This document shows positions 5,471 to 45,432 of a stretch of 64,000 bases of DNA, one piece after another. The stretch's first letter is position 1. Every line of letters starts with the position of its first letter. Source of the stretch: a virus. Taxonomy: Duplodnaviria; Caudoviricetes. The notes under the pieces are model-generated. The model had not been told where the DNA came from. It made no database searches and saw only the letters and a program-made list of their open reading frames with translations. The stretch lies in the IMG/VR virus record IMGVR_UViG_3300023435_000009; one strand, written 5' to 3'. The position numbers were made by a program, and so were the translations under genes.

Positions 5471-6832
5471 TACAGCTTACCTTGATAAGAAGGCTTGTGT
5501 TTTTTGTTTTTCTTTAGTAAACTGCAACCATGGGATTGAGAACTTAAGGTAGCGAAATGATTCGGTCTTCTGCTCATAGCTTGCGGTTTGCAAACCCAGG
5601 TAAGGTGAGATTGGTAGGGGAACTTATCGGAGAGTATCGCCTTTTTGTCCAACGCATTCTAAACGACATATGGGAGAATGGCTTTCCAACGTGGGACTTT
5701 TTCCCAAGCTCAAACAGACTGGATTTCAAAGGCAAGAGCCTTCTACCCACAAAGTACCTCAAGCAGTTCCCAACAGAGATATCAGCAAGGCTTCAACAAG
5801 CTGCTGGTAAACAAGCCGTTATGATGCTCAAGGCAGCCACGGAGAAACGACGGAAACAACTTTTCGTGCTGGCTAACCTTCAGCGAGAAGGTAAGAAGTA
5901 CCAGTACCTCCAGTCAAGGGTTGACCGGCAACCTCTTGTGAAACCGGACGCTTCAGGAATCAATCTGGAACTAGATTCTCGTTTTGTGGGTTTCCAAGAG
6001 ACAGACATCTTTTTGTTTGTTCAACTCTCATCCCTTGGAATCCCACACATTAGAATTCCTATCAAAAAGACCCGTTGCTCTAACAAGTGGCAGACTAGGG
6101 GACTCCTGAAAGTATGTGTTAGGATCTCTGAGGACACACTACATCTAATTTACGAAGTGCCAAACAAAAGCGCCTCAGGAAGTCAGATAGTTGGTGCAGA
6201 CCAAGGTATCACAACTGCGTTGACTCTCTCAAATGGAGAAGCAACCAAACGTTGTCCTCATGGGCATACCCTCCAAACGATCCAAGCAAAACTTGCTCGT
6301 AAGCAAAAGGGGTCGAATGGTTTTCGTCGTACCCAAGAGCATCGCAAGAACTACATCCATTGGTCCTTGAATCAACTCAACTTCAAGGACGTGAAAGAAG
6401 TTCGTTTTGAGAAAATCAAGCATCTCCGCTTATCAAAGCGGAGTTCACGCTATATGTCACATTGGCGCTATACTTTGATCAAAGACAAACTTGTTCGTCT
6501 CTCTGAGGAGGAAGGTTTCCTTTTTCGGGAGGTTGCGAACGAGTTTAGGTCTCAGAGGTGTAGCGAGTGTGGCTGGGTCCGTAAGAGTAACAGGAAAGGT
6601 AAGACGTTCAAATGTGGCAAATGTGGCTTTACCATAGATGCTGATTTGAATGCGGCTTCCAACTTGAAGCTCGATCTCTTTGAGATCCAATGGTGGGTAC
6701 GGCTAAGTCAAATAAATCGTAAAGGGTTCTTTTGGACTTCTGATGGTTTGTTTGACGAAGGGCGGGAGTCTATAGTCCCCGCCACCATAAAAGACAATGA
6801 AAGTAAGAAATTGCTACAACATTGTTGACTAT
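5471..6832 (+). mobile_element. TnpB-only IS200/IS605-superfamily element, family A copy 1
   Basis: 1362-nt segment with a close second copy at 44072-45432; shared ends TAYAGCTTACC...GTTGACTAT (exact ends uncertain by 2-3 nt). Confidence 0.85.
5557..6828 (+). CDS. tnpB: RNA-guided endonuclease TnpB
   Basis: RuvC-I GADQG, RuvC-II VRFEK, Zn ribbon CSECG..CGKCG, RuvC-III DADLNAASNL. Confidence 0.92.
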   Translation: MIRSSAHSLRFANPGKVRLVGELIGEYRLFVQRILNDIWENGFPTWDFFPSSNRLDFKGKSLLPTKYLKQFPTEISARLQQAAGKQAVMMLKAATEKRRKQLFVLANLQREGKKYQYLQSRVDRQPLVKPDASGINLELDSRFVGFQETDIFLFVQLSSLGIPHIRIPIKKTRCSNKWQTRGLLKVCVRISEDTLHLIYEVPNKSASGSQIVGADQGITTALTLSNGEATKRCPHGHTLQTIQAKLARKQKGSNGFRRTQEHRKNYIHWSLNQLNFKDVKEVRFEKIKHLRLSKRSSRYMSHWRYTLIKDKLVRLSEEEGFLFREVANEFRSQRCSECGWVRKSNRKGKTFKCGKCGFTIDADLNAASNLKLDLFEIQWWVRLSQINRKGFFWTSDGLFDEGRESIVPATIKDNESKKLLQHC

Positions 6833-12387: not shown

Positions 12388-13889
12388 AGAAGGGGTACTT
12401 GACAGTATCCGACTTACTTGCTAGAGATTAATTATTCCTGCTTGAATCAGGAAGCAGAGGTTAGCAAATGAAGTGTCGCATCTTCCGACTTCACAAGGAT
12501 ACCAATCAGTCCAAGATCGATAAGTTGGAAGCCCTACACAAAGCATACGTCAAGTACGTCCGCATTTGCGTACAAACGATGCTTGACCAGCAGGTCTATA
12601 ATCTCCCGAAAGCCGCCAAACAAACGTTCTTCCCACGGGCCACCAACCTTACGTCCCAAATCGAAAAGATCGCACGAGACCACGCTATCCAAATTGTGAG
12701 CGCTTGGGCCAAAGCCACTTACGCCCGCAAGTTGAAACCGACTATCACCAACCTCAAGCACGAGGGTACCCTCACCGAACAGGACGCCAAAGCACTCTGT
12801 GTCATCGGATTAAAAGCCATCAGTAAGCCCTGGAAGTTTATCACCCAAGACCATCTCGACGCCTACCACACCCTGTTGGACACCTACGGAGGTAATAAGC
12901 CTATCGTAAGGGACAACCTGCCCATGCGGTTGTCGGAGATGACGGCTCGGTTGGAGGACGCATCTAAAGCCCCTCTCGGGGACTTCTGGTTGAGGGTGTC
13001 TTCGTTAGAAGCTCGTAAGTCCGTCTGGTTGCCTCTCGTTGGGAATCTTTACATTCAACAAGCTGATCAGGTCAGCAAAGGGATCTCAGCCCGCAAAACC
13101 AAGCGAGGCTTTTGGCGCTTTGAGGCGGTCAGTAAGGCTGAATGGGTTGTTCCCGAAGCACAGGAAGGTTGGCCTAAGTTGGGCGTTGACGTTGGTCTGA
13201 ACGTCCTTGCAGCTACATCAGATGGAGTGATTTACGGTGAACACGTCAAACCTAAGTTCGACAAACTCTACGCTCGTGTCAGAAATCTTCGAGCAAATCG
13301 CCAACGGCAGGATTTGAAGGATAACAGCCCAAAGTTGGATCACCTTGAGAGCAAATTGAGTGGGTTGATCAAGACAGAGACGGGTCGTGTGGTAAACACC
13401 CTTATCGTTCGTCATCCCGAGACGGTGTTCGTGGTCGAAGATCTCGATCTTCGAGGTTGTAGGGGTCAAAAAAGGTTTGCTTACAGGGCGTTACAGATCA
13501 ACTTGGAAAGGAAAGCTCCAACAAAGAAAGTGAACCCTGCTTACACGTCGCAGGAGTGTCCTTCTTGTGGTTATGTTCATCGAGGAAACCGAAGTTCAAT
13601 AAGGTTCCGTTGCCGCTCGTGCGGCAGGAAAGCTCATGCTGATTGGGTAGGAAGCGCTGGTGTGCTCAGACGTTCTGGAGACGAACACATCAAAGCTAAT
13701 GATCACCCACGAGGCGTAAAACGAGTGCTAAGAGAGCGATTCCGTATTAAGCGGACCAGTTCCTTGGGATTCGGACGGCAAGAGCAACCGTCATCCGAGC
13801 CCTTACCGTTGGGCCGGGAGCTTACTACCGAGGCACTTGGGTTACCAAGGATCGGCACAGCCTCAAACTTGATGCCTGTTACATTCTAG
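12388..13889 (+). mobile_element. TnpB-only element, family B full-length copy
   Basis: 5' region (AGAAGGGGTACTTGACAGTA...ACTTACT...TTCCTGCTTGAA.CAGGA) and tnpB 3' region are shared with the remnant at 63771-64000; ends approximate. Confidence 0.7.
12468..13889 (+). CDS. tnpB: RNA-guided endonuclease TnpB (family B)
   Basis: LGVDVGLN, VVEDL, CPSCG..CRSCG, HADWVG RuvC/Zn motifs. Confidence 0.9.
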   Translation: MKCRIFRLHKDTNQSKIDKLEALHKAYVKYVRICVQTMLDQQVYNLPKAAKQTFFPRATNLTSQIEKIARDHAIQIVSAWAKATYARKLKPTITNLKHEGTLTEQDAKALCVIGLKAISKPWKFITQDHLDAYHTLLDTYGGNKPIVRDNLPMRLSEMTARLEDASKAPLGDFWLRVSSLEARKSVWLPLVGNLYIQQADQVSKGISARKTKRGFWRFEAVSKAEWVVPEAQEGWPKLGVDVGLNVLAATSDGVIYGEHVKPKFDKLYARVRNLRANRQRQDLKDNSPKLDHLESKLSGLIKTETGRVVNTLIVRHPETVFVVEDLDLRGCRGQKRFAYRALQINLERKAPTKKVNPAYTSQECPSCGYVHRGNRSSIRFRCRSCGRKAHADWVGSAGVLRRSGDEHIKANDHPRGVKRVLRERFRIKRTSSLGFGRQEQPSSEPLPLGRELTTEALGLPRIGTASNLMPVTF

Positions 13890-14176: not shown

Positions 14177-14524
14177 ATGAAAAGGATTCTGATTGCACTG
14201 TTGACACTGATCTTGGCGGCAGCATTCGTCTTGTCCTGTAACACCACGGAAGAGAATGCCGAGGACGTGACTGTTGCCGAGGACACCCTGGCAGACCTCA
14301 TCGAGGGCGACGTGCCCCTGACGGACGGAACCGTCGAGACTGTCGCAGCCCTGGACACCGTCCCCACCGAAGACACCCTTCTGGAAGAGATGCCCACCCC
14401 GGTGGACGTGATCCAGGACGAGCACACCCCAATGGACGCCGTTGGGGATGCGCCTCCGATGTACGACAACCTGGAGGAAACGCACACCCCGGTGGACGTA
14501 CTCCCCGAGGTCGCATCCAACTAG
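14177..14524 (+). CDS. acidic lipoprotein
   Basis: signal peptide with lipobox VLSC; Asp/Glu/Pro-rich low-complexity mature part. Confidence 0.7.
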   Translation: MKRILIALLTLILAAAFVLSCNTTEENAEDVTVAEDTLADLIEGDVPLTDGTVETVAALDTVPTEDTLLEEMPTPVDVIQDEHTPMDAVGDAPPMYDNLEETHTPVDVLPEVASN

Positions 14525-15205
14525 CCCACCAGTTTGTCCAACTCACCCCTCAGATACTTCACGGCTGAGATACGTTTCCCCAGTCGATGATCTGTGACCT
14601 GATCCCTCTGGAGAGCGATAGTTCGTACCTTGTCGGACATCATGCCTCTCCCCACCTGAGCTTTCCGTTGCTGGTTACGTTGGTCCAACTGAGAGGATGC
14701 CTCTGCCTCCTGTAATCGGGCAGACAGGATTGCCTTCGCCGTTTGTAAATTCCGGTACTGTGATCGTTCGTTCTCTACTCGGACAACCAGACCCGTGGGT
14801 TTGTGTGTGAGGATTACTGCAGACGAGGTTTTATTCCGATGTTGGCCTCCAGGACCTGAGCCACGGGTCGCCTGCCACTCCAGGTCTCGCTCGTTCAGTT
14901 TGACGGTCTGCTCGTCCACGAGAGAGAGTATAGCGATAGTAACTGTTGACGTGTGTGTCCTGCCCCGTTTCTCCGTGGGGGGTACCCGCTGCCATCTCAT
15001 ACCACCGGCTTCATGCCGAAAAGCCCTTACAGCCCCCTTCCCGACCGCCTGGAAGGCAAGGAAACCGGGACGGTCCTCCAGCAACACCACGTCAAAGGGA
15101 CCTCCTCTGTGCCCATCGCACATAAACACCGTACTGTTCATGAACCAATAAGGAGGCATCCCGACCTCCCTCACCTGCTCTTATTTCTATTATGACAGTT
15201 TCCAT
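14521..15205 (-). CDS. class-1 peptide chain release factor-like protein (domains II-IV), expressed via +1 programmed frameshift; about 227 aa
   Basis: Frame 0 from ATG 15205 (GAAGGAG RBS): METVIIEIRAGEGGRDASLLVHEQYGVYVRWAQRRSL-stop. The +1 frame continues DVVLLEDRPG...RWQRVPPTEKRGRTHTS...GSGPGGQHRNKT. Confidence 0.9.
15091..15106 (-). promoter_or_regulatory. RF2-type +1 programmed ribosomal frameshift cassette
   Basis: AGGAGG-TCC-CTT-TGA-C: internal SD 3 nt upstream of CUU-UGA-C, the prfB architecture. Confidence 0.9.
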
Positions 15206-16320
15206 TAGTTTGACTCCTTCTCTAGCCCTAGTCGTCGGCAGGCCCACCCAGCCCATGCCGGGGTCATTTGAAAATGTTCCGCAATGCGTTTTTGTGTCCA
15301 GCCTTGCCCCCTCAGTTGACGGAGTTCCTTTTCGACTTGATCAATTTTTGCGGGAGCTTTACCCCTCACCTGAAGCTTGTATCGGAAGCAATCAGGACAA
15401 AAAGGTTCCGTTAGGGCCACCAGTTCCAGTCGGTGTTTTCGTTGGCTTAGGACCAGTCTAGGATTCCCTCTGTGGCTCTGCACACGAGGAGACCAACCAT
15501 AAAGTAGCCGCAGTCTAGAGGCTAGAAACTCGACATCCTCCCAGGTGAAACCGTCCGTGCAAAAGGCTACCCCATACCCTGTATTAATCAGCCCACCATC
15601 ACCCCAGTACCAATGCGCTAACGCTCGGGGGGTTAGCCGGATGTCCAGAGGAATAATTTTTTTACCCTTTGGGTACCAACGGAGGCGCTGGTCCGTAAAT
15701 GTTTTGTATTTCAGTGTCCTTAACTGTAAACTCGGGTTACCTCGGAGAACCTGTTTCCCAATGTGACCGATTCTTGCCGGACGTGGTTTTATGTTGCTTT
15801 TAACACCCCCGGCCCTAAGTTCCCTTTGAACCTGTTCAAGCCATTCCTTTCGGTCTGCTCTTTGTGCTAGTCCCAGACGACCCTCACTGCCACCTGTTTT
15901 TTCCAACCAGGCGTCACCAAGAAGTAAACCATCGATTAATTCAAGGGACTCCTCTGTGGTAGGGAAGGTCTTGTGACAAATCAGAGTATGTGCCTCCTGT
16001 ACCCCCCGTAGAGGAACACCAGCCCGCTCTAAACGGATACGCACCCAGTTGCGACTGAAACCCGTTGCCTTCGCTAACTCAGAGACAGAACGTCCTGACA
16101 GATACTCAGCGGGAAGGCTTTCCGTTGTTTTTGCATCTCGTTTGCCTTGAGCGATTGTTGCAGCCTCACTGTGGGTGCGGAAAGAAACATCTGCTTTAGC
16201 CAACCGTCGATGAATCACAGGTGCTGAAACACCTAGTGCCTTAGCAATGTGCAACTCCAGTTCCCCCGCTTGGTACCGACGAACAATGTCTGCGTCATCC
16301 AACGTGAGTCTTTTGGGCAT
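15205..16320 (-). CDS. LAGLIDADG homing endonuclease with N- and C-terminal HTH-like segments
   Basis: LIDGLLLGDAWL and ALAHWYWGDGGL motifs; GAGGAGG RBS before ATG 16320; TAATG overlap with the release-factor gene. Confidence 0.85.
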   Translation of the reverse strand: MPKRLTLDDADIVRRYQAGELELHIAKALGVSAPVIHRRLAKADVSFRTHSEAATIAQGKRDAKTTESLPAEYLSGRSVSELAKATGFSRNWVRIRLERAGVPLRGVQEAHTLICHKTFPTTEESLELIDGLLLGDAWLEKTGGSEGRLGLAQRADRKEWLEQVQRELRAGGVKSNIKPRPARIGHIGKQVLRGNPSLQLRTLKYKTFTDQRLRWYPKGKKIIPLDIRLTPRALAHWYWGDGGLINTGYGVAFCTDGFTWEDVEFLASRLRLLYGWSPRVQSHRGNPRLVLSQRKHRLELVALTEPFCPDCFRYKLQVRGKAPAKIDQVEKELRQLRGQGWTQKRIAEHFQMTPAWAGWACRRLGLEKESN

Positions 16321-16376
16321 AACGTCCTCCTCTGACAGCCCCACTCTACACGACGATCTCTGACCGGCAAGGACTT

Positions 16377-16685
16377 TCACACCCACTTGTTCCGGGGGAC
16401 AAAGATCAGGGTGACGCTGTCGTCCTCCCAATCCACACCCTGGCATCGTGCCCATGTCCTAAACTCTCGTGTTTCTCGTCGCCACCGATAGATCCGGTCA
16501 CGGCACCCGATGTCACAGATGCCCCGGCTCATACGAGGACGACCGAAAGTGCGCTTGCGGCAGTGGCAGGCTAACGATGGGGTCTTGGCGTACCGATGTG
16601 GCTCCACATCCTCGGGAGCGCTGTAGATTTCAAGACGTGAACGGATGACATTTGCTGTCCTCTGGCGGCGGGTTCCACGGTCCAT
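16377..16685 (-). CDS. hypothetical protein
   Basis: GGAGGA RBS, co-oriented. Confidence 0.5.
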   Translation of the reverse strand: MDRGTRRQRTANVIRSRLEIYSAPEDVEPHRYAKTPSLACHCRKRTFGRPRMSRGICDIGCRDRIYRWRRETREFRTWARCQGVDWEDDSVTLIFVPRNKWV

Positions 16686-16778: not shown

Positions 16779-17003
16779 TCAGGCTTGTCCAGTCGTTTTC
16801 GACTTAGGACAGGTCCATCGGCCATGGGCGTCCTTGGTCAGGGTCTTCGCTCTGCGGGCGTTGAACAGGACCGCTCCCGTGGAGCGCTTGTTGGTGTAGC
16901 CCACGCTGGCGCACAGGGACACGACCTGCTTCCCGAGGATCGGTCCGTGGTGTGCAACGATACGCTGAACGAGTTCGAGTGGTGTTTTGTGTTCCATTTT
17001 CAC
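16779..17003 (-). CDS. small hypothetical protein
   Basis: overlaps the stop of the upstream HA gene; co-oriented. Confidence 0.5.
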   Translation of the reverse strand: MKMEHKTPLELVQRIVAHHGPILGKQVVSLCASVGYTNKRSTGAVLFNARRAKTLTKDAHGRWTCPKSKTTGQA

Positions 17004-17335
17004 TCCTTGGTGTCCCAGGTGAATCCGAGAGCGTTCAACTGGGCGATCCTTTCCGGGGTCATCCTGACCTTGTGCTGCCCCTCCTGGACCGTTCCGACAC
17101 GGCTTCCCAGCTTGTAGCCGTCCGGGCTGACGTAGTTGTGGGGCACGGCACAGTGGCCGTGCGCCCGCTTGAACGCCGTCAGGTGGGAAAGGAAGTTGGG
17201 GAGCCAGGGCTTCTCGGATGTCCTGTTCGTCCTCCCAAGGCGTTGCACCACACAGTGACCGTGTGCCTTTCGGTAGGCCGTCAGGCGACTCAGGAACTCG
17301 GGGAACCAGGGCGTCTCAGGTGTCTTGTTCTTCAT
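17000..17335 (-). CDS. helicase-associated (HA) repeat protein (1 partial + 1 full repeat)
   Basis: WFPEFLSRLTAYRKAHGHC...PDGYKLGSRV...LNALGFTWD. Confidence 0.8.
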   Translation of the reverse strand: MKNKTPETPWFPEFLSRLTAYRKAHGHCVVQRLGRTNRTSEKPWLPNFLSHLTAFKRAHGHCAVPHNYVSPDGYKLGSRVGTVQEGQHKVRMTPERIAQLNALGFTWDTKE

Positions 17336-17358
17336 GTTCGTCCTCCTTGTACTGGAGA

Positions 17359-17386
17359 CTACTCAGGGGTGGGCTTGGATGATCCC
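17359..17386 (-). promoter_or_regulatory. conserved bipartite motif (putative phage promoter)
   Basis: GGGATCATCC-N12-GAGTAG; its TAG is the stop of ORF 17359-18078. Confidence 0.8.
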
Positions 17387-18078
17387 CTGAGACTCCAGAC
17401 AAAACCCAGAGCGTCCAGTTCGGTGACCATTTCGGGAGTCACCTTGACCTGACCCCCACCATTACGGGATGAACGAATACTGTTTGTTCGAACACCGAGT
17501 TGGTAGCCATCGGGGCATTTGTAGGATTGCGCCGGAGAATAGTCCCCGAATTTGGCATGGTACTCCTTCAGCCTCTTCAGGAATTGGGGAAACCACTCGT
17601 TCCCATTCCAGACGAACCCAAGAAGGTCCAGCGCCGCTATCATCTCTGAGGTAGGGCTTACACGTTTCTTGTCCTTTTTTCTTGTCCGGACATCAGATAC
17701 CCTCATCCCAAGGGCGTAACCATCGGGACATTTGTAGGACTTTGGGACACGGCAGTGCCCGTGGGTCTTTTTGTACTCCTTCATGTGGGACAGGAATTCA
17801 GGGAACCATTCGCACACAACCCAAACGAACTTCAGGGCATCAAGTTCAGCGATCATTTCGGGAAGGTGTCTGGACTTGTTATGCCGGACACTACTTACAC
17901 GGGCACCCAACCTGTACCCGTCGTCACACAGGTAGGACTGCGGCACTCGGCAATGTCCATGACATTTCTGATAGGCTTTGATTTCCCCCAGGAACACATC
18001 GAACCACGCTGGCCAAGGTTTTATCCGCCCAAGCTCAGTGAGGCGTTTACGGAATTTGTTGCTGTTACTCCTGCCCAC
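17359..18078 (-). CDS. HA-repeat protein (3 repeats)
   Basis: W-F..FL..LK.Y...HGHC.VP.SY.C.DGY.LG...LD.LGFVW repeats. Confidence 0.85.
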   Translation of the reverse strand: MGRSNSNKFRKRLTELGRIKPWPAWFDVFLGEIKAYQKCHGHCRVPQSYLCDDGYRLGARVSSVRHNKSRHLPEMIAELDALKFVWVVCEWFPEFLSHMKEYKKTHGHCRVPKSYKCPDGYALGMRVSDVRTRKKDKKRVSPTSEMIAALDLLGFVWNGNEWFPQFLKRLKEYHAKFGDYSPAQSYKCPDGYQLGVRTNSIRSSRNGGGQVKVTPEMVTELDALGFVWSLRGSSKPTPE

Positions 18079-18088
18079 GGACGACCTC

Positions 18089-18742
18089 CTACCAGCCGTA
18101 GGAAAGGCGGAGGAGTTGCATCGGAATGACTCGGCTGCGGTACGTAGTGAACGCTTGCTTCGGCACCTGGACGCCGCAGTGTTTGTGGACGATGGCCTCG
18201 AACTGCCGCTTCGCCTTTTCCAAGGGAGCGCTGGCGTTGCCCCGGAGGGCTAGGTTGATGACCAGGAGGAATTGTCCCAGGCGCTGCTGTTGGGACTGGG
18301 CAAAGGCGAACATCGGAAGGAGGATGCTCTCCAGGTGGAGGTTGCTGGGACTGCGAAACCCGTCGAACACGAGGACGCCGATGTTGCGGAGGGTCGGGTC
18401 GTCCAGGTCCAGGAGGAGCCGGGACATGTCGCCGCAACGCCACTCGGTGCGGTCGTCGTTGTAGTGGGTGGCGTTGCGGTCAAGGATCCCCTGGTTGGTG
18501 TTGACGCCGATGTATCGGCCATGGTCGGGGGCAAGGACGCCTTCGTCCAGGAGGAGGCCACAGGTAGCGTCAGGGGCATCACCGCACAACTCCATCCAGT
18601 CCCTGGTCAGGTGCCCGTCGTAGAAGAGGTTCGTGGGGCACTCTGGGTCACGGAGGAGGTCGAGGGTCGTGGTCCTGGTCTTGTGCTTCTCCGGGTGTTG
18701 TTCAGGGGGGAAGGAATGGATGTCAGCCTGCGGGGTGGTCAT
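18089..18742 (-). CDS. hypothetical protein, possible degenerate methyltransferase fold
   Basis: GC-rich ORF inside the HA array; YIGVNT...WRCGDM pattern weakly MTase-like. Confidence 0.5.
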   Translation of the reverse strand: MTTPQADIHSFPPEQHPEKHKTRTTTLDLLRDPECPTNLFYDGHLTRDWMELCGDAPDATCGLLLDEGVLAPDHGRYIGVNTNQGILDRNATHYNDDRTEWRCGDMSRLLLDLDDPTLRNIGVLVFDGFRSPSNLHLESILLPMFAFAQSQQQRLGQFLLVINLALRGNASAPLEKAKRQFEAIVHKHCGVQVPKQAFTTYRSRVIPMQLLRLSYGW

Positions 18743-19624
18743 GGGGTGTTGTCCTTCTTCTGATTGCGGAGATCCCAAACGAAACCGAGGACATCAATCT
18801 GGTTGATCTGAGTGGGTGTCAGTTTACGGCCATCCGCCGGGGCAGACGTATTTTTGGGGGGGTGTCTGTCCCCCGTGTGCGTCCATGTACTCTCTGAGGT
18901 GACAAAGGAACTCCGGCCACCACTGCCCTTTCGTGGTGGCGTCCCAGACAAAGCCGAGAGCACCGAGTTGGCTCCGCATAGTGGGGGTCAAGACCCGGTG
19001 ATTTCGTACCCCCGCTGTGTGATGGCCTAGTTTGTAGCCATCATCGCATACATAGGTGCCACGCACCTGACAACGGCCATGCACGGCCTTGTACGCCTTC
19101 AAATGTTCCAGGAACTCCGGGAACCACTCTGTCGGGACATCCCACAGGAAACCTAGTTGCTCAAGTTTCTCCGCCCTGCTCGGGGTGATTTGGACGCCCA
19201 CTTTGTGCCTTTTGCCTGTCCGAACAGCATTCACTTTTGGGCCAAGTCTATACCCGTCCTGACATCTGTACTGGGTGGGCACCTGACAATGGCCGTACTC
19301 GGCTTTATAGTCCTTCAGACGCCGGAGGAACTCGTCGAACCAACAGGGGATCTCCCAAAGGAAACCGAGTTGATCCAGTACAGGCACCATTGAGGGAGTC
19401 ACTGTCCGAACACTTTTCCCTTGTCGAAACCTGCGAATGTCCCCGACCCTGTTCCCCAATGTGTACCCGTCAGTACACTTGTAAAGCTGCGGCACCTTAC
19501 AGTCCCCGTGTTCTTCCTTGTACGCCTTCAGATGTGCCAGGAACACATCGAACCACGCTGGCCAAGGTTTCATCAGCCCAAGCTTGGCGAGACGTTCACG
19601 GAATTTGTTGTTCCTTTTGCCCAC
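18739..19624 (-). pseudogene. HA-repeat protein (3 full repeats) with a frameshifted, internally deleted fourth repeat
   Basis: Frame ends YVCPGGWP* at 18824; another frame continues DGRKLTPTQINQIDVLGFVWD to a stop at 18739 with ATGA overlap of the next gene. Confidence 0.75.
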
Positions 19625-19643
19625 GGACGACCTCCTACCAAGA

Positions 19644-19671
19644 CTACTCTGTAGGTGGCCGAGATGATCCC
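19644..19671 (-). promoter_or_regulatory. conserved bipartite motif (putative phage promoter)
   Basis: GGGATCATCT-N12-GAGTAG; its TAG is the stop of ORF 19644-20648. Confidence 0.8.
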
Positions 19672-20648
19672 GTTATTCGAACATCCCACATAAAGTCGAG
19701 GGCAGCTAGATCAGCAACCATGGGCAGGGTGATTTTCCTCCGACCTGTTGCGTCCCTACGGCCCTCTCTAACGCTGTTCGTCATGGCCCCTAACTTGTAC
19801 CCATCCCGACAGCAATATCCCCTGGGCACCATGCTGTCGCCGTGCTCCCGGTAGAACTTCGTCAGGTGACTGAGGTACTTGGGGAACCATTTGCCCGTCA
19901 GGTTCCGGTCCCGCTCGAACCCGAGGGCATCCAGTTTTAAGACCATCTCTGGGGTGACCTGGAGGGGCATCGACTCATCGCTGCCCTCCTCCAACCGGCG
20001 GATGCTCGTTCGGATGCGTTGGACCCTCAGGCCTAACTTGTGTCCATCCGCACATTCAAATTTGACAGGGATCGAACAGTTCCCATGTTCCGCCTTGTAT
20101 TCACGCAAACGCTGCACAAAGTCGGGGAACCATTCCGAGGGTTCCCATTCAAATCCAAGTGCGTCCAGGTCAGCAATTATCTCATCCGTGAGTTGCCGGA
20201 ACGCCTTCTTATTCAGTGCCCTTGCCCGTTTCGCTGCCCGAACAGCGGCGGCAGTTTTACCCAGGGTGTATCCATCGGGGCACTCATAAGGAACGGGTGG
20301 GTTTTGGCCGTCGTGAGCGGTCATATATTCCACCAGACGAACCCGGAACTTTTGGAACCAGCGATCTTTTGGAGCCAGCCAGTCAAAACCGATGGCATCG
20401 AGGGCAGTACTCATCTCCTCCGTCAACACACGGTTTGATGGGCGCTTCCTTGCGGAACGGATTCGCCCCACCTTGTTCCCTAAGCGGTACCCGTCTTCAC
20501 ACTTGTAGTTGTGGGGCACTTCACAATCCCCGTGCTCCGCCTTGTACGTCTGAAGGTGGGAGTGGAACTCATCGAACCACGCTGGCCAAGGTTTCATCCG
20601 CCCAAGCTCAACGAGCCGCAGTCTGAATTTGTTGCTCCTCCTACGCAC
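19644..20648 (-). CDS. HA-repeat protein (4 repeats)
   Basis: four HA-like units after the SNKFRLRLVELG leader. Confidence 0.85.
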   Translation of the reverse strand: MRRRSNKFRLRLVELGRMKPWPAWFDEFHSHLQTYKAEHGDCEVPHNYKCEDGYRLGNKVGRIRSARKRPSNRVLTEEMSTALDAIGFDWLAPKDRWFQKFRVRLVEYMTAHDGQNPPVPYECPDGYTLGKTAAAVRAAKRARALNKKAFRQLTDEIIADLDALGFEWEPSEWFPDFVQRLREYKAEHGNCSIPVKFECADGHKLGLRVQRIRTSIRRLEEGSDESMPLQVTPEMVLKLDALGFERDRNLTGKWFPKYLSHLTKFYREHGDSMVPRGYCCRDGYKLGAMTNSVREGRRDATGRRKITLPMVADLAALDFMWDVRITGSSRPPTE

Positions 20649-21567
20649 GGATGACCTCCCACACGAAACCGATGGCGTCGAGTTCCTTGATCATCTCGGG
20701 AGTCACTTTGATCCTGCCTATGCCTCTCTTAGCTTGTCGGACACCCTTTACCCGTGTCCCGAGCTTGTACCCGTCCTCGGGACACTTGTAGGATGTGGGC
20801 ACCTGATAGTCCCCGTGCTCCTTTTTGTATTCCTTCAGCCTCACCAGGAACTCAGGGAACCACTCCTTCGGATCCCACACGAACCCGATGGCATCGAGTT
20901 CCTTGGTCATCTCGTCGGTCAGGATGACCGTCCCTTTGCCTCTCTTAGCTGACCGAACACCCCTTACCCGTTCCCCCAGATGGTATCCGTCCTCGGGCCA
21001 CTTGTAGGACGTCGGCACCTGACAGTGGCCATGCTCCCTTTTGTATTCCCTCAGCCTCACCAGGAACTCAGGGAACCACTCCCTCGGATCCCACACGATC
21101 CCAATGGCGTCGAGTTCCTTGATCATTTCGGGGGCTATTTTGAGTCTCCCTTTGTCTCTCTTAGCTTGTCGGACATTATCTACTCTGCCCCCGAGCTTGT
21201 ACCCGTCCTCGGGACACTTGTAGGATTTAGGCACCTGACAGTGCCCACGCTCCTTTTTGTATTCCTTCAGTTTCTCCAGGAACTCAGGGAACCACTCCCT
21301 CGGATCCCATACGAAACCGATGGCGTCGAGTTCCTTGGTCATCTCGTCGGTCAGTGTGACGTTCCCTTTGCCTCTCTTAGCTGACCGAACAACCATTACC
21401 CGTTCCCCCAGATGGTACCCGTCCTCGGGACACTTGTAGGATTTAGGCACCTGACAGTGCCCACGCTCCTTTTTGTATTCCTTCAGTTTCTCCAGGAAGA
21501 GGTCAAACCAAGCTGGCCAGGAAGGCACATAACCCAACACACTGAGGCGTTGCCGGAACTTGTTCAT
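20641..21567 (-). CDS. HA-repeat protein (4 repeats, 216-nt period, ABAB)
   Basis: near-identical 72-aa units visible at DNA level. Confidence 0.88.
   Translation of the reverse strand: MNKFRQRLSVLGYVPSWPAWFDLFLEKLKEYKKERGHCQVPKSYKCPEDGYHLGERVMVVRSAKRGKGNVTLTDEMTKELDAIGFVWDPREWFPEFLEKLKEYKKERGHCQVPKSYKCPEDGYKLGGRVDNVRQAKRDKGRLKIAPEMIKELDAIGIVWDPREWFPEFLVRLREYKREHGHCQVPTSYKWPEDGYHLGERVRGVRSAKRGKGTVILTDEMTKELDAIGFVWDPKEWFPEFLVRLKEYKKEHGDYQVPTSYKCPEDGYKLGTRVKGVRQAKRGIGRIKVTPEMIKELDAIGFVWEVIRA
20660..21500. repeat. tandem 216-nt coding repeat x4
   Basis: recurring GATGGCRTCGAGTTCCTTG and CCGTCCTCGGG blocks with 216-nt period. Confidence 0.85.
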
Positions 21568-22271
21568 CTCGGAACCACCCAGAGGAAACCGAGGGCATCA
21601 AGTTTGGCGATCATCTCGGGGATCACTTGGAGGAAACCTTTGCCTCGTCTCCCGCATCGAACATGGCTCGCCTTTTCTCCCAACTTGTACCCATCGGGGC
21701 ACACGTAGTCCTTCGGGATGTGGCCCACGGGGTACTTTTCCAGCACCGCTTTGATGTGGGCGTAGAACTCTGGCCACCATTTGCCAGTGTTGCAGGCGTC
21801 CCAGACAAACCCTATAGCGTCAAGCTGCTCGACCATCTCGGAGGTGACCTTGAGACTACCTATGCCCCTCCTTCCGGAACGGATCACTTGTACTCGTTTC
21901 CCCAGCTTGTATCCGTCATGGTGGACATGCGTGCCAGGGGGGGCGCAGTGACCGTGTTCCGCCTTGTACTCAATCAGACGGCGAAGGACACCTTTGAACC
22001 ACCCGTTCCCGTTCCACGGGAAGCCAATGTCATCGAGCATCCGAATCATCTCGGACGTAAGCTTATGACCAGTTCCTCGGCGGTAGCTAGTTCGGATGGA
22101 GTTGGTTTTCGACCCTAGCTTGTACCCATCTTCGCAGGCATACGTCTGAGGGGGTGTCCTCCCGTCATTTTCCTCCATGTACCGTGTCATACGGGCCACG
22201 TAGTCCAGGAACCATTCGGATACGGGTTCCACCAGCCCCATTTCGGCCAGTCTTTTGCGGAACTTGTTCAT
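21564..22271 (-). CDS. HA-repeat protein (3 repeats)
   Basis: MNKFRKRLAEMG leader plus three HA units; ATGA overlap with the helicase stop. Confidence 0.85.
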   Translation of the reverse strand: MNKFRKRLAEMGLVEPVSEWFLDYVARMTRYMEENDGRTPPQTYACEDGYKLGSKTNSIRTSYRRGTGHKLTSEMIRMLDDIGFPWNGNGWFKGVLRRLIEYKAEHGHCAPPGTHVHHDGYKLGKRVQVIRSGRRGIGSLKVTSEMVEQLDAIGFVWDACNTGKWWPEFYAHIKAVLEKYPVGHIPKDYVCPDGYKLGEKASHVRCGRRGKGFLQVIPEMIAKLDALGFLWVVPR

Positions 22272-24247
22272 GGCATCTGCCCGTAGACCTGCTTCCAGTT
22301 GATTGTGATCGGGGGGAGCTTGAAGTGAGGGGAAGCGTCGGTGTTATCAATAGGGGGTTCAACTTTGTGCTCCTCAAAGTAGGACATCAAGGCGTCATCT
22401 ATCTGAGCCAAGGTGAACTGTGGCGGAGGTATCGCAGCTTTCAGACGTTCAGCGACCTGCTTCGCTGTCCTGCCCTCGAAACGGGACAGGAAGTCAACGA
22501 CCCTGTCCGCCTGACCAATGTCCGCCGTCGCCCCTTCGAACTCTTGGATCACTGCGTCGAAGACCGGCCTCAACTCCTCTCGGATGATGCGGTAGTCAGA
22601 CAAATCCCCGCCCTGGGCCTTCCTCCACAGGGTCTTGTGAAAGTAGGAGAAGGCTCGGGTTTGTTTTTTGAGGATGCTGTACGCCAGTGCTCGTTCAGCC
22701 TGTTCCATCTGCTCCTTGGACAACCGCATCGCTGTCCTCAGGTAGTGGGCCACCTCTTTGTTGGTCGGTTTCTTGACCCCACTCTCACGGAGAAGGATAA
22801 CGGCCTTGACCATGAGACCCATGGCCTCCCGGCACTGTTGAACATCAGCCCCGATGAACTGGGTGACATCCTCCCAGGTTTCCTCCGCCGGGCGATGCTT
22901 TTTGCCCTGACGCTTGTGCCCGATGTCCTCCAAACGTCGCTGGATGTCCCCCAGGATGTAGTCCTGGCCGACACTAAAATCCGCCATGAAGCACGCCGTC
23001 AGGAAGGCATGATCCTGGTGCTGCTGTTCGAACTGGGCAAACAAGTTCTCGGTCACACAGGGTACCAGGAAGGTGAAGGTGGCCGTGTTCTTGTGCTCCT
23101 CGGGGTAGCCATCGATGGCTCCCTTGAAGCGCAACGCCCGCCCCAGGCGTTGAAGGATGCGGACGAAGGAACTGGTCAGGCCGATGTTGTAGACATGGCT
23201 GCACAGGGGCCAGTCGGTTCCCTCATTGAACCGGGCACAGGCAAGGATCACGTCTACGGTGGAGTCCTCGTAGGCTCGGACCCGACGTTCCTTTCGGAGG
23301 AGGTGCTTGAGGGCGTCGGTGGCTCGTTGCCCCCCCTTGATGGCGTTGTGTACCCTCGCTCCCTGCCTGGTGAACTCGTCCTCCAGCCGTTTAGACCACG
23401 CATCGGCACTGTTAGCGGGGACGATGATGACAGCCTTGGGGCGCTTGTCCTTGACCCACAAGTCCACGATGTCGATACAGGTTTGGAGTGGGGCAGTACT
23501 GGTCATGGACTCGCCAGCAAGCTGATTCGTCGTGTTCGCCTTTATGCCCAGAGGATGTGTGCGGAAAGAAAGCTGCCCCGGTGCGTACTGGCCTCCCTCC
23601 ATGTGGGATGCCAGCGTGCGGTCCCAGCGGGGGGCGTTGTCATCAATAAGGGTATCACCGTCCGTGCGGAAGGGCGTGGCAGTCACGTGAATGACTGTGC
23701 CCCCTCGGGTCTGCCACTCCTTGACGAAGGTACCCACACCGTTCTCGGGGGCTGTGTGGTGTGCCTCGTCCACGATCAGGAGACGCCCGGTCATGTCCTT
23801 GGGGAGAAGGTCAGGGGCAAACCAGACTGCCGCCGCCATATGTGTCGTGACCAGCACCCGGTTAACCGGGCGGACACTTCTGACGTGATCTTTGAGGTAC
23901 TCCCGGCGCTTACCATCCCGAACTTGGAACCACTGAAGGGCCGCTACCGTGAGTGGCCCCCCAACAGACACTCTTCCCTGGGGTACTTCCTCGCTGGGGC
24001 GGATCTTCAGGTCTCCCTCATAGATGAAGGCATCCGAAATCTGACACTGTGGGGCGAGAACAACGGCTAACCGAAACATCTCCGTGTTGAGCAACCGTTC
24101 GGCCAGATAGGTCACCATGAGGGATTTGCCGCTTCCGGTGGGACCACTCAGCACTACCTCTCGTCTCCCGTTGGTGACGTGCCGGAACAAGTGCCGGAAA
24201 CAGTCCTGCTGATAGGGGCGCAAGGTACGAGTTTCAGGGGTTTTCAT
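22268..24247 (-). CDS. superfamily II helicase (type III restriction Res-like DEAH)
   Basis: SGPTGSGKS, IVDEAHH, TATPFR, RFNEGTD, LQRLGRALR motifs. Confidence 0.9.
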   Translation of the reverse strand: MKTPETRTLRPYQQDCFRHLFRHVTNGRREVVLSGPTGSGKSLMVTYLAERLLNTEMFRLAVVLAPQCQISDAFIYEGDLKIRPSEEVPQGRVSVGGPLTVAALQWFQVRDGKRREYLKDHVRSVRPVNRVLVTTHMAAAVWFAPDLLPKDMTGRLLIVDEAHHTAPENGVGTFVKEWQTRGGTVIHVTATPFRTDGDTLIDDNAPRWDRTLASHMEGGQYAPGQLSFRTHPLGIKANTTNQLAGESMTSTAPLQTCIDIVDLWVKDKRPKAVIIVPANSADAWSKRLEDEFTRQGARVHNAIKGGQRATDALKHLLRKERRVRAYEDSTVDVILACARFNEGTDWPLCSHVYNIGLTSSFVRILQRLGRALRFKGAIDGYPEEHKNTATFTFLVPCVTENLFAQFEQQHQDHAFLTACFMADFSVGQDYILGDIQRRLEDIGHKRQGKKHRPAEETWEDVTQFIGADVQQCREAMGLMVKAVILLRESGVKKPTNKEVAHYLRTAMRLSKEQMEQAERALAYSILKKQTRAFSYFHKTLWRKAQGGDLSDYRIIREELRPVFDAVIQEFEGATADIGQADRVVDFLSRFEGRTAKQVAERLKAAIPPPQFTLAQIDDALMSYFEEHKVEPPIDNTDASPHFKLPPITINWKQVYGQMP

Positions 24248-24566
24248 TTGCTGTCACCTCCGTCCTCAACGGGACGTCTTCGGGTTTTCGTAATCTCCAC
24301 TGGTAGGAGGGGGACATGTATCTTGAGGGGGTGATCCATCCGACACGCAGATCCCCTGTGCGGCTCATCATGTTTTCCTGCACCCAAAAACCGACATAGC
24401 GTTTGAACCTGTTCCTGTTGTCAGCGTGGCGGAACACGAAGTCGAAGGCGTCCTCTATGGTCTCGGCCTCGATACGCCCCTCATAGAGGTGGTGTGACTG
24501 CGTGGGAGACCGAAACCCAAAAGCGTACCACATCTTCAGTTCTTTGGTGTCGTCCTTTTCCGCCAT
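24234..24566 (-). CDS. hypothetical protein
   Basis: first gene after the motif at 24588; GGAGG RBS. Confidence 0.6.
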   Translation of the reverse strand: MAEKDDTKELKMWYAFGFRSPTQSHHLYEGRIEAETIEDAFDFVFRHADNRNRFKRYVGFWVQENMMSRTGDLRVGWITPSRYMSPSYQWRLRKPEDVPLRTEVTANENP

Positions 24567-25481: not shown

Positions 25482-26054
25482 TCAGGGGATGGGCGGAGCG
25501 TCGTCCGCTGTTTCCTGCCAGTCGCTAAACTCCTGGAACTCGTTGTCCTGGAACAGGACGACCTGGACCTCCTCGATGGGGAGGCGGGCTTCCTGTTTCA
25601 TGGCCTCGTGGAGGGCGTGGGCAAAGGCCGACACGCTGCCCCCGTAGACCCCTGCTGAGATGGCGGGGAAGGCGACCCTGTTGGCTCCGATCCGGGCCGC
25701 TTCCTTCAGGCAGTTGACGATGCAGTGCATGAGTTCATTGAGGGGCCGGGGTTCGACCCGCTCGCCCGGTCGGAGGCTTCGTATGCCGTACCCAGCGAAG
25801 ATCGGCCCCGCCGTGTGGATGACGAAATCGGCGTCCAGGTCGAAGCCCTCGGTCGTCCGAACCTGTCCGACCCGAATGCGGACACCCTGTTCCAACTCGG
25901 GGAACTCCCTGCACGCAGCCCTCAGCCCCGGACCCGCCGCTCGGTGAATGGCCCCGTCGACCCCCCCACCGCCAAGCATCCTGGGGTTGGCAGCGTTCAC
26001 GATGGCGTCCACCTGTGCGTGGACGATGTTCCCCCGGTAGTAATGCAGCCTCAT
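25482..26054 (-). CDS. macrodomain protein (MacroD-like ADP-ribose hydrolase)
   Basis: GNIVHAQVDAIVNAAN..LGGGGVDGAIHRAAG, VIHTAGP, AFPAISAGVYG. Confidence 0.92.
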   Translation of the reverse strand: MRLHYYRGNIVHAQVDAIVNAANPRMLGGGGVDGAIHRAAGPGLRAACREFPELEQGVRIRVGQVRTTEGFDLDADFVIHTAGPIFAGYGIRSLRPGERVEPRPLNELMHCIVNCLKEAARIGANRVAFPAISAGVYGGSVSAFAHALHEAMKQEARLPIEEVQVVLFQDNEFQEFSDWQETADDAPPIP

Positions 26055-26095
26055 TTTGCGTGTCTCCTTGCGGGGGTCCTTTGCCCTCACCTAGA

Positions 26096-26123
26096 CTACT
26101 CTGTAGGTCGGTCAGATGATCCC
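26096..26123 (-). promoter_or_regulatory. conserved bipartite motif (putative phage promoter)
   Basis: GGGATCATCT-N12-GAGTAG upstream of the macrodomain gene. Confidence 0.8.
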
Positions 26124-26139
26124 GGTACCTATCGTTTGC

Positions 26140-26712
26140 TCACTTGTTCAGCCCATTTCCCCACCGACTTGGTGAGGGGGTGTCTTCCTGTCGTCTGTTC
26201 ATCCGTGCCAGCAGATCCCGTTTCCGGGCCAGCCGCTCGATCACAGAGGCCATGCGCTTCCGTCCTACCGGGTTGGCGGAGTGGACCCTGATATCGTTCG
26301 GGATCGGGAAATTGATGTCTCGATCGAGTTGCTCTTCCAGCCAGCACAGGACATCATATCCCGTCACCTCACGCCCCTTCTCGGGACTGTAGTCAGCGAT
26401 GTCGTGGTCCAGGGACAGGGTCCCGATGGCCTCCTGCTGGAGCATCTCGATGCACCGTGCGTAGGTGCGGACGACGAACCAATCGATACCCTCACCTGGT
26501 TCGTCTGGGATGATCTTCATGTGTCTTGATTCGTACCAGGGACCTTCCGTGTCGCCGGGAAAGGGACAACCCCGGACGTCATCCAGGTAGAGGTTGATCT
26601 TCGTTGGACGGCCCCGGTAGTTCTTCCGGGCCACCACACGACAGTGGGAACAGTCCAGGTTACAGCCGATCTGAGGGTTGCCACACAGGGGGCATCTGTT
26701 GGAAGCGGTCAT
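26140..26712 (-). CDS. cyclic-phosphate-processing receiver-like domain protein
   Basis: LYLDDVR, LSLDHDI, TGYDVLCWL, VHSANPVG motifs. Confidence 0.75.
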   Translation of the reverse strand: MTASNRCPLCGNPQIGCNLDCSHCRVVARKNYRGRPTKINLYLDDVRGCPFPGDTEGPWYESRHMKIIPDEPGEGIDWFVVRTYARCIEMLQQEAIGTLSLDHDIADYSPEKGREVTGYDVLCWLEEQLDRDINFPIPNDIRVHSANPVGRKRMASVIERLARKRDLLARMNRRQEDTPSPSRWGNGLNK

Positions 26713-27344
26713 ATGGGGATCTCCTTGCTTTGACGGGACAGGACACTCCTCGAAACCTCGTTCCCAGGAAGGCATGCTGTCAACCATTTGATGTCCTCGT
26801 CACACAGCCGCTTGGCTGCGTCTAACGTCCGCACAGGTTTCATTGGTGCAACTAGCGGTCGGTCCTGGTCTGACAGCCTCACGGGCAGGTACACGCTGTC
26901 AGGGCCTCCGAGAACCATGTGGGTGGTGGCCCCGGAACCGTCTTTGTAAAACACCGTCCGAACGTAGATCAAGGGGTTGCCCTCGGTGGCTATCCTGGTA
27001 GTGAAATTACTCCACCAATGGATACGGACCACAGCAGCTTCGATCTGGTCTCGTTGTCGTTGGTCCTGTCGCTCTGCTGTCCGCAGCACCCACTCGTCAG
27101 GGGTCTGGTGTGCCTGACATGCCCTGAGGAAGATGAACAGGAAGACCGGCCACATCCCCAGGAGAAGGAAGAGGGTCTTCGGGGTCATCGGTCTGTCCTT
27201 GGGCCTGTGGGGGTGCTCGTTCACCCAGGTGGCGTACTCGGGTCCTCGGGTGTAACTCCCAGCCAGTCCTGCGAGGAACAACAGCATCTGGACAAACCCC
27301 CCGACCACAAACCAGCTCAGGACGATCTGGATGAATGTAACCAT
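26709..27344 (-). CDS. membrane protein
   Basis: two hydrophobic N-terminal segments; start approximate. Confidence 0.55.
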   Translation of the reverse strand: MVTFIQIVLSWFVVGGFVQMLLFLAGLAGSYTRGPEYATWVNEHPHRPKDRPMTPKTLFLLLGMWPVFLFIFLRACQAHQTPDEWVLRTAERQDQRQRDQIEAAVVRIHWWSNFTTRIATEGNPLIYVRTVFYKDGSGATTHMVLGGPDSVYLPVRLSDQDRPLVAPMKPVRTLDAAKRLCDEDIKWLTACLPGNEVSRSVLSRQSKEIPI

Positions 27345-44046: not shown

Positions 44047-44071
44047 GTCCCTTACCTTTGGTAGAGGAACT

Positions 44072-45432
44072 ATAGTCAACAATGCTGTAGCAATTTCTTG
44101 CTTTCATTGTCTTTTATGGTAACGGGGACTATAGGCTCCCGCCCTTCATCAAACAAACCATCAGAAGTCCAGAAGAACCCTTTACGATTTATTTGACTTA
44201 GCCGCACCCACCATTGGATCTCAAAGAGATCGAGTTTCAAGTTGGAAGCCGCATTCAAGTCAGCATCGGTGATAAAACCACATTTGCCGCATCTGAACGT
44301 CTTACCTTTCCTGTTACTCTTACGGACCCAGCCACATTGGCTACACCTCTGAGACCTAAACTCATTCGCTACCTCCCGAAAAAGGAAACCTTCCTCCTCA
44401 GAGAGACGAACAAGTTTGTCTTTGATCAAAGTGTAACGCCAGTGTGACATATAACGTGAACTCCGTTCACCCCTACGGAGATGCTTGATCTTCTCAAAAC
44501 GAACTTCTTTCACGTCCTTGAAGTTAAGTTGATTCAAGGACCAATGGATGTAGTTCTTGCGATGCTCTTGGGTACGACGAAAGCCATTCGATCCCTTTTG
44601 CTTACGAGCAAGTTTTGCTTGGATCGTTTGGAGGTTATGCCCATGGGGACACGACAGTGTCGTTGCACCATTTGAAAGAGTCAACGCAGTAACTAATCCC
44701 TGGTCTGCCCCAACTATCTGACTTCCTGAAACGTTTTTGTTTGGTACTTCGTAAATTAGATGTAGTGTGTCTTCAGAGATCCTAACACACACTTTCAGGA
44801 TTCCTTTAGTCTGCCACTTGTTGGAGCATCGAGTTCTTTTGATGGGGACTCTAATGTGTGGAATACCAAGGGATGAGAGTTGGACAAACAAAAGATGTCT
44901 GTCTCTTGGAAACTCACAAAGCGAGAGTCTAGTTCCAGATTGATTCCTGAAGCATCTGGCTTAACAAGAGGTTGCCGGTCAACCTTTGACTGAAGTCGTT
45001 TGTACTTGCCACCTTCTCGCTGAAGGTTGGCCAACACGAAAAGTTGTTTCCGTCGTTTCTCTGTGGCTGCCTTGAGCATCATAATGGCTTGTTTTCCAGC
45101 AGCTTGCTGAAGCCTTGCTGACATCCACGTTGGGAACTGCTTGAGATATTTTGTGGGTAAATGATTCTTGCCCTTGAAGTCCAGTCTGTTTGAGCTTGGG
45201 AAAATGTTCCACGCTGGAAACCCCTTCTCCCATATGTCGTTTATGATGCATTGGACAAAAAGGCGGTACTCTCCGATAAGTTCGCCTACCAATCTCACCT
45301 TACCTGGGTTTGCAAACCGCAAACTATGGGCAGAAGACCGAATCATTTAGCCACCTTAAGTTCTCAATCCCATGGTTGCAGTTTACTAAAGAAAAACAAA
45401 AAACACAAGCCTTCTTATCAAGGTAAGCTATA
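44072..45432 (-). mobile_element. TnpB-only element, family A copy 2
   Basis: 1361 nt, collinear with 5471-6832, same ends. Confidence 0.85.
44076..45346 (-). pseudogene. tnpB: frameshifted tnpB
   Basis: the T5 run of copy 1 (6010-6014) is T4 here (44890-44893), splitting the ORF. Confidence 0.85.

Follow-up and report, generated by a model that had tools for sequence, protein, structure and literature searches.

The stretch of DNA analysed here, which we call the window, is the 64,000-nucleotide (nt) virus record IMGVR_UViG_3300023435_000009 (Duplodnaviria; Caudoviricetes). On its minus strand, a gene for a superfamily 2 (SF2) helicase is accompanied by seven 3′ genes, of which six encode HA-repeat-only proteins (PF03457) and one encodes a partner protein with a methyltransferase-like fold. 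The partner gene lies within the array, so that four HA genes stand before it and two after it. From the helicase downstream, the genes are as follows.

22268-24247, minus strand: SF2 (ResIII-type) helicase, 659 amino acids (aa); Pfam ResIII, DEAD, and Helicase_C; PHROG 16 DNA helicase (4e-29)
21564-22271, minus strand: HA1, 235 aa; leader and 3 HA units; PF03457 3.8e-24; ATGA overlap with the helicase stop
20641-21567, minus strand: HA2, 308 aa; leader and 4 HA units from four 216-nt tandem repeats; PF03457 2.8e-53
19644-20648, minus strand: HA3, 334 aa; leader and 4 HA units; PF03457 5.4e-39
18824-19624, minus strand: HA4, 266 aa; leader, 3 HA units, and a truncated fourth; PF03457 4.2e-36
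18743-18823, minus strand: out-of-frame remnant of the last HA4 unit (…KLTPTQINQIDVLGFVWDLRNQKKDNTP*), read by three-frame translation; ATGA overlap with the partner start
18089-18742, minus strand: partner, 217 aa; class I S-adenosylmethionine (SAM)-methyltransferase-like fold, without a Pfam family; conserved companion of the helicase
17359-18078, minus strand: HA5, 239 aa; leader and 3 HA units; PF03457 1.1e-32
17000-17335, minus strand: HA6, 111 aa; without the leader; one internally deleted and one full unit; PF03457 2.4e-20; its own AAGGAGG site

The helicase displays the Walker A, DExH, motif III, and motif VI elements and the two RecA-like domains of the SF2 enzymes. Its ATPase motifs are all intact (Walker A GPTGSGKS at residue 35, DEAH at 160, TAT at 189, and QRLGRALR at 366), and the Pfam matches place ResIII at residues 8-194 (1.6e-11) and Helicase_C at residues 319-374 (1.4e-5). 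A phmmer comparison with the PDB sequences returns weak RIG-I-like matches alone, over the Helicase_C region, and no nuclease family is detected in the helicase by Pfam, PHROG, and NCBIfam scans. A first-pass annotation, made by reading the sequence, had described a helicase followed by six stand-alone HA genes with about 18 full repeats, and had proposed profile searches against PF03457 and ResIII. The helicase and all six HA genes indeed match these profiles, and segmentation yields 18 full HA units and two broken ones, namely the last of HA4 and the first of HA6. The seventh, non-HA gene at 18089-18742 had been overlooked.

The genes are tightly packed. ATGA overlaps are present at the helicase/HA1 and HA1/HA2 junctions, as had been reported, the HA2/HA3 overlap comprises 8 nt, and the other genes of the array are separated by short gaps that carry AGGAGG-type sites; the ribosome site is strong in all of the genes. 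The internal promoters reported along with the overlaps were not recovered: the coding strand within the array has no sigma-70-like site, and promoters and terminators across the region are at the background level. Rfam and tRNA scans of the window gave no matches. A 110-aa gene upstream of the helicase (24234-24566) was considered as a member of the module and excluded, because it is not conserved in the related loci.

The six HA proteins score 73-178 bits against PF03457 (gathering threshold, 28.4; E 2e-20 to 3e-53), in tandem copies. HA is the sole significant Pfam family on these proteins, and the Methylase_S (PF01420) target-recognition domain is absent from them. The reference for the HA fold is the three-helix fold of PDB 2KTA, and as described in PMC12191111, residues 627-691 of BVU_0683 from Bacteroides vulgatus are a solved example (Mills et al. 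2013) and HA units are reported to bind DNA (Mills et al.). Our AlphaFold2 model of HA1 residues 1-95 has three helices per unit, with a predicted local distance difference test (pLDDT) score above 90. In the PDB, Foldseek detected no structure similar to this N-terminal model at E < 1, and phmmer found no match among the PDB sequences. The HA proteins are basic, with isoelectric points of 9.3-10.1, and we infer that these particular HA units bind DNA as well.

All 18 full units retain every consensus residue, and the ratio of nonsynonymous to synonymous substitution rates (dN/dS) between paralogous HA segments is below 1 throughout (0.14-0.70), with the maximum in the internal units of HA2. 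The latter gene is built from four tandem units of 216 nt (repeat family D1) that are 82-87% identical. In the last unit of HA4, the middle is lost and the frame is changed, so that the remainder is legible in another frame, and this truncation is identical in all of the contigs examined. A C7A5 homopolymer run, CCCCCCCAAAAA, is located at 18860-18880 (minus strand), shortly before the truncation of this repeat.

We collected relatives of the locus as helicase homologues (P0001-P0045), read their neighbourhoods, and scanned 40 fetched loci with hidden Markov models (HMMs) of our own construction. The homologues are few and originate from metagenomes. In IMG/VR, scans with single proteins gave nothing, while scans with the helicase alignment gave matches; a DNA search of the phage database with the window found no match. 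The partner is the most constant companion of the helicase: it adjoins the helicase in about 25 loci of very large phages, usually directly 3′ with a 4-nt overlap. Moreover, the two are naturally fused in L033, in P0061 (ResIII followed by the partner), and in P0133, which is a triple fusion of a helicase (28% identity, E 2e-67), an HA unit at residues 605-662, and the partner at residues 921-1078.

Between the helicase core and the partner lies a repeat array of 0-14 units, either fused or in separate genes, and either of the HA type or of a second type, which we call T. As for the HA type, the helicase runs straight into five fused HA units in P0005, L002, and L008 (the P0005 helicase is 42% identical to that of the window), and separate HA genes are present in L003 (one), L001 (three), and the P0004 contig (three, upstream there). 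The closest relative, L024, with a helicase 54% identical to that of the window, has an 8-unit HA gene plus fragments, in an array broken across reading frames. The number of HA cassettes between related loci is thus 0, 1, 3, 3, 5 fused, and 6 in the window, and the variation in cassette number that the first-pass annotation had wished to see compared across genomes does exist.

The T-type unit is about 70 residues long and reads LTLEDIKKAILKYFKEHGKxP…SGDASKYFGFxITWxxVDxRLRxG…GGSSLxKLCxEMGL. It is fused to the helicase in 4-14 copies in L010, L014, L020, L025, L027, L028, and L037, and occupies separate downstream genes in L004, L015, L016, and L020.

T-type repeat examples: L004:10815-14389; L015:5282-7572; L016:9387-16288; L027:170-4279; L020:9983-13291

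In an hhalign comparison, the T unit and HA align with a probability of 12%, over helix 1 only, and homology is not demonstrable. The T unit has the layout of HNH_repeat (PF18780), in which a helix ending in …G..P is followed by a …W… helix and a …L..L..(A/M)GL helix, with marginal matches: at the 26-bit mark, the tail of the window helicase has none, the L001 tail gives E 0.11, and the 7-unit array of L025 sums to 38.7 bits with no single stretch passing. The T repeats differ from PF18780 in being attached to a helicase rather than to an HNH nuclease. With HNH_repeat excepted, Pfam searches of the tails and partners at a loose threshold returned chance-level matches only. The T-type repeat and the methyltransferase-fold partner are two uncatalogued families. 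In one relative (L039:98-2810), the helicase ORF stops after repeat helix 1, and the overlapping next ORF opens with helices 2 and 3; this arrangement is either a frameshift, genuine or introduced by the assembly, or a split of another kind.

How are the separate HA proteins of the window related to the helicase? Five of the six HA genes (HA1-HA5) open with a leader, (M/x1-5)NKFRxRLxxxG, which is followed in HA2-HA5 by (P/S)WPAWF. The alignment confirms what had been read from the translations, that is, a common leader on five genes and PWPAWF or SWPAWF on four. Within the leader, N2 and L8 are conserved at 90% or above and G12 is invariant, and the motif is confined to these genes among the 4557 open reading frames of 41 loci. 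The DNA block that had been noticed in three of the genes also holds: a 21-nt block occurs exactly three times, against zero expected from shuffles. It sits in a 197-nt paralogous 5′ segment, ribosome site included, that is common to HA3, HA4, and HA5 and is 68-77% identical among them. The elements concerned are the following.

22271-22417, minus strand: helicase tail, residues 611-659; truncated T-type repeat that has helices 1 and 2 but no helix 3; socket of the leader by prediction
22230-22268, minus strand: HA1 leader helix, residues 2-14, NKFRKRLAEMGLV; equivalents at the start of HA2, HA3, HA4, and HA5
17998-18018, plus strand: exact 21-nt block ATCGAACCACGCTGGCCAAGG, coding for PWPAWFD on the minus strand; other copies at 19547-19567 and 20571-20591

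The helicase tail is an unfinished T unit. In the T-unit HMM, which has 73 positions and was built from the relatives, the tail of the window helicase matches positions 1-42. L024, L001, and L003 share this ending with the window: each of the four helicases closes with one T unit, which breaks off after helix 2, at position 42-47. A helix-3-like segment opens the gene that follows such a truncated tail, as well as the further HA genes and the partner of L001 and L003: the SLSKLCIEMGL of the T unit corresponds to TLGRKLIEMGL in L001 and to KFRKRLAEMGL in the window. When the leader of the next gene is joined to the tail, the HMM alignments of L001 and L003 reach position 69. The description of the leader as a non-repeat peptide must therefore be revised, as it resembles the missing third helix of the terminal repeat of the helicase. 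The idea that the tail is a split HA domain was rejected, because of the hhalign result given above and because the tail is also found in relatives without HA genes.

The occurrence of the leader follows the state of the tail. The four helicases with a truncated last unit are followed by leader-bearing genes, and the seven with a complete last unit (…SSLxKLxxEMGL; L010, L018, L020, L025, L027, L028, and L037) are followed by leaderless genes. The leader is specific to the locus and common to the paralogues within it (NKFRxRL in the window, N(T/A)LGxKL in L001, KALGRHL in L003, and NL(Y/H)EYAV in L024), and it is conserved across loci with helicases that are only about 45% identical. Furthermore, both tail and leader are missing from the fused relative P0005, whose first HA unit begins exactly where the tail would start.

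We then modelled helicase residues 430-659 in complex with HA1 residues 1-95, using alignments that we built ourselves. The complex model scored 0.62 (runs: 0.65, 0.43, and 0.62), as compared to 0.00 for the best of three controls; 58 of the 80 solved complexes in the calibration and 2 of its 110 mismatched pairs reached the score mark, which is a rough guide here since our own alignments were used. The three runs share 100% of the contacts, with the partner-chain pLDDT at least 77 and an expected error of 1-2 Å. The HA1 leader is placed on the last ~45 residues of the helicase, as an answer to the complex modelling that had been suggested at the outset, and the interface is the one that we had predicted in advance. 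On the leader side, it involves residues 2-5, 7-8, 11, and 13-14, with F4, L8, and M11 in the centre. On the helicase side, it involves I616, D617, L620, M621, and F624 of helix 1, then E630, P631, and I633, and finally W651, Y655, and M658 of helix 2. In the monomer model of HA1, the leader is helical with a pLDDT of 61, as compared to above 90 for the HA domain; thus, no confident packing of the leader on its own chain is predicted. The complex model supports a putative binding of the leader to the tail. The docking of the stand-alone HA proteins on one motor through the leader, as imagined in the first-pass annotation, accordingly finds support in silico, namely in the score against the controls, in the fused relatives without leader or tail, and in the leaderless genes that follow complete units.

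From these results, we interpret the locus as a split form of a large-phage module consisting of an SF2 helicase, a basic helical repeat array, and a methyltransferase-fold partner. The HA-type array no longer sits on the helicase but is spread over six genes of its own, all in one orientation and closely coupled, and the helicase keeps one unfinished terminal repeat with helices 1 and 2. We propose that the 12-residue amphipathic leader helix would insert into this unfinished unit and complete the three-helix bundle, tethering each HA array to the motor non-covalently, as a detachable counterpart of the covalent tails in the relatives. With one socket and five plugs, the HA arrays would be alternative tails, and hence mutually exclusive; the diverged arrays of 3-4 units would lend the translocase different DNA-binding properties. 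The partner would act with the helicase, and modification, remodelling, and counter-defence are candidate roles of the assembled machine on DNA. We give an even chance to the central part of this proposal, that the HA proteins act as alternative and detachable tails for DNA binding, attached to the motor by a donated missing helix. A wider version, possible but doubtful in our estimation, is that the unfinished repeat serves as a general socket, for which the five HA arrays here, and in the relatives also the partner, would compete by donating the missing helix, allowing one motor to be reprogrammed combinatorially with DNA-binding tails or enzymatic heads.

Several observations weigh against the donated helix. 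Appending the leader to the tail raises the HMM score by only 1 to 4 bits, and not at all for HA1 itself; therefore, the sequence case for the leader as helix 3 is weak when taken alone. The complex model may just complete a familiar three-helix fold, and the partner and HA6 of the window lack the leader. In addition, the stand-alone T-type arrays in L004, L015, and L016, where the helicase tail may be complete or incomplete, also open with a helix-3-like segment, and the leader helix could thus cap the N-terminus of free arrays in general. The leader would then be such a cap, or merely a duplicated 5′ end, with the HA proteins binding nucleic acid alone and the operon serving co-regulation only. 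The partner of L002 fits this explanation, as it has a leader-like N-terminus although the L002 helicase is devoid of an unfinished T unit, and so does the 197-nt paralogous 5′ block of HA3, HA4, and HA5. However, the leader does not pack with confidence on its own chain in the monomer and is set on the helicase tail in the complex, with an expected error of 1-2 Å and controls at 0.00. The co-occurrence of truncated helicase ends with leader-bearing downstream genes, and the retention of the leader between loci with such divergent helicases, also argue against a cap or duplication, which we consider rather unlikely.

The other explanations concern the way in which the genes are expressed, exchanged, or lost. 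Part of the translation products could be a covalent helicase-HA1 fusion, if ribosomes slipped by -1 at the ATGA overlap or reinitiated there without being released. The sequence …CAG ATG CCA TGA, read with a -1 shift, would give …GQ(M)AMNKFRKRL… and bring the leader directly after helix 2; the helicase/array boundary of L039, which cuts the unit between helices 1 and 2, is frameshift-like in the same manner. However, this junction, at which the first-pass annotation had envisaged such a joining, has neither an X XXY YYZ slippery heptamer nor downstream structure at the helicase stop, and among the coupling overlaps of prokaryotes ATGA is the most frequent. A frameshift cannot account for the leader of HA2-HA5 either, because the genes preceding them end in complete units, and it is very unlikely in our view. 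We attach little credence to the possibility that the extra HA genes are decaying duplicates without function. The broken units of HA4 and HA6, the missing leader of the latter, the fragmentation of the L024 array across reading frames, and the dN/dS of up to 0.70 in the internal HA2 units would fit decay, but eighteen units retain every consensus residue, all of the genes have intact frames and strong ribosome sites, dN/dS stays below 1 throughout, and several leader-bearing HA genes recur in L001 and L024. Least of all do we expect a programmed recombination that exchanges the HA genes as cassettes, in a phase-variation-like switch of specificity; a swapping of cassettes by recombination had been suggested. 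In its favour, an exact block of 21-27 nt is common to the 5′ ends of HA3, HA4, and HA5, and one strain variant (L042) has an HA2 gene with 3 units (236 aa) instead of 4, i.e., minus one 216-nt unit. Yet this is the sole variant among at least 24 contigs of the window phage, in which the genes are intact and their order and content are unchanged, and the loss of one HA2 unit is ordinary tandem-repeat slippage. Contigs of four further salt-lake DNA runs are identical to the window, without joints, although rare variants could stay hidden in contigs. The genes are also co-oriented, and the array has no inverted repeats of at least 18 nt with good complementarity and no adjacent recombinase. A change in cassette order is accordingly not seen in the contigs of this phage, in distinction to the cassette number, which varies between related loci.

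The Logan contigs of independent runs all end at the 26-nt blocks of HA3, HA4, and HA5 (17992-18017, 19541-19566, and ~20571-20591). The short-read assemblies are fragmented there, so that a variant with another copy number or gene order might escape notice.

Next, we consider the partner. Following the helicase/HA block, L001 and L002 encode proteins with 51% and 35% identity to the window protein, which has no match in Pfam, PHROG, NCBIfam, or PADLOC. Its AlphaFold2 model (pLDDT 79) has a Rossmann-like seven-strand fold; the top 50 PDB matches are all methyltransferases (E ~1e-6, template modelling (TM) score 0.4-0.55), and the best cluster in the AlphaFold database is A0A354GYH7 (TM 0.65). 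The SAM motifs are altered: ELCGDxxD replaces GxGxG, and strand 2 ends in an invariant Asn (IGVN) rather than the customary Asp or Glu. The conserved elements are restricted to G66, D70, IGxN93, and D139, and the partner alignment contains none of the N6A, N4C, and C5 DNA-methyltransferase motifs. Given these altered motifs, we call the partner a putative methyltransferase. The family is rare, with 157 clusters among 1.84 billion representatives.

The closest known kind of system is the HA-tailed SF2 helicase (PF03457), which has the same ResIII-type motor and tandem three-helix HA units. In the window, by contrast, the HA units are carried by six polypeptides, five of them with a common leader, the terminal repeat of the helicase is unfinished and of another type, and the module includes a methyltransferase-fold protein. 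The type I and type III restriction-modification (R-M) systems (HsdR-HsdM-HsdS and Res-Mod) likewise place a ResIII-family SF2 translocase beside a methyltransferase-fold protein and separate DNA-binding subunits, and alternative HsdS specificity subunits are known for one type I enzyme. Unlike these systems, the window locus has no nuclease domain, no HsdS target-recognition domains, and no N6A, N4C, or C5 motifs, and it is located in a phage rather than in a defence island. The analogy to HsdS of type I R-M, drawn in the first-pass annotation, thus fails on content. The features of type III Res, a PD-(D/E)xK fusion, and of Mod, the DPPY and FxGxG motifs, are also absent from the window helicase and partner. 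A search of PADLOC-DB gave a best match to PbeA (34.5 bits), over the N-terminal ATPase part only, and nothing for the HA proteins and the partner, which lends no support to the defence role that had been considered.

The donation of a missing element is known elsewhere, from the donor-strand complementation of chaperone-usher pili, the docking helices of polyketide synthases and nonribosomal peptide synthetases, and split inteins. In systems of the donor-strand type, one chain has an incomplete fold, another supplies the element, and several donors per acceptor are possible. The predicted donation here differs in that a helicase accepts the element, which is helix 3 of a DNA-binding-type repeat of ~70 residues. 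New at this locus are a module of three parts, a split that runs through a repeat unit, the common leader with its predicted socket, and the five-fold set of leader-bearing arrays.

HA repeats are common, and functional work on them is nearly absent. The present locus ties them, by conservation and natural fusions, to a three-part module in the largest known phages, and it offers a testable rule of assembly, in which one helix is donated to an incomplete repeat. If true, this rule would explain the easy gain, loss, splitting, and type-swapping of the repeat tails of SF2 helicases, and would provide a small natural docking pair of ~45 and 12 residues. If the unfinished repeat were indeed a general socket, it would represent a previously undescribed way to build modular DNA-targeting machines in giant phages.

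Finally, we examined the phage and the surroundings of the locus. The exact HA1 protein is found on contigs of up to 528 kb, and the DNA of the locus in many salt-lake metagenomes; none of the sequencing runs listed for it is an RNA run. The gene content, with TnpB, LAGLIDADG, RtcB, a release-factor-like gene, and a Macro domain, marks a very large phage. A Macro-domain gene and a cREC_REC-domain gene are located shortly upstream of the helicase operon (25482-26787, minus strand), and the neighbours in the related loci include NADAR, SIR2, NUDIX, HU, and Lar-like genes. By association only, this neighbourhood would fit an early or counter-defence region and suggests functions related to ADP-ribose.

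Other genes of the window also deserve mention. The release-factor-like gene (14521-15205, minus strand), whose 212-aa call on L041 matches PCRF and RF-1 of Pfam, sits just downstream of a LAGLIDADG/helix-turn-helix homing-endonuclease gene (15205-16455). Two TnpB/Cas12f-like transposase genes lie on the plus strand at 5557-6828 and 12468-13889 (PHROG transposase; Pfam Cas12f1-like_TNB on the L041 call). A 1214-aa ORF at 40438-44082 (minus strand) combines a radical-SAM region at residues ~909-1208 with a weak glycosyltransferase-like stretch (PHROG), a combination that is unusual for a phage.

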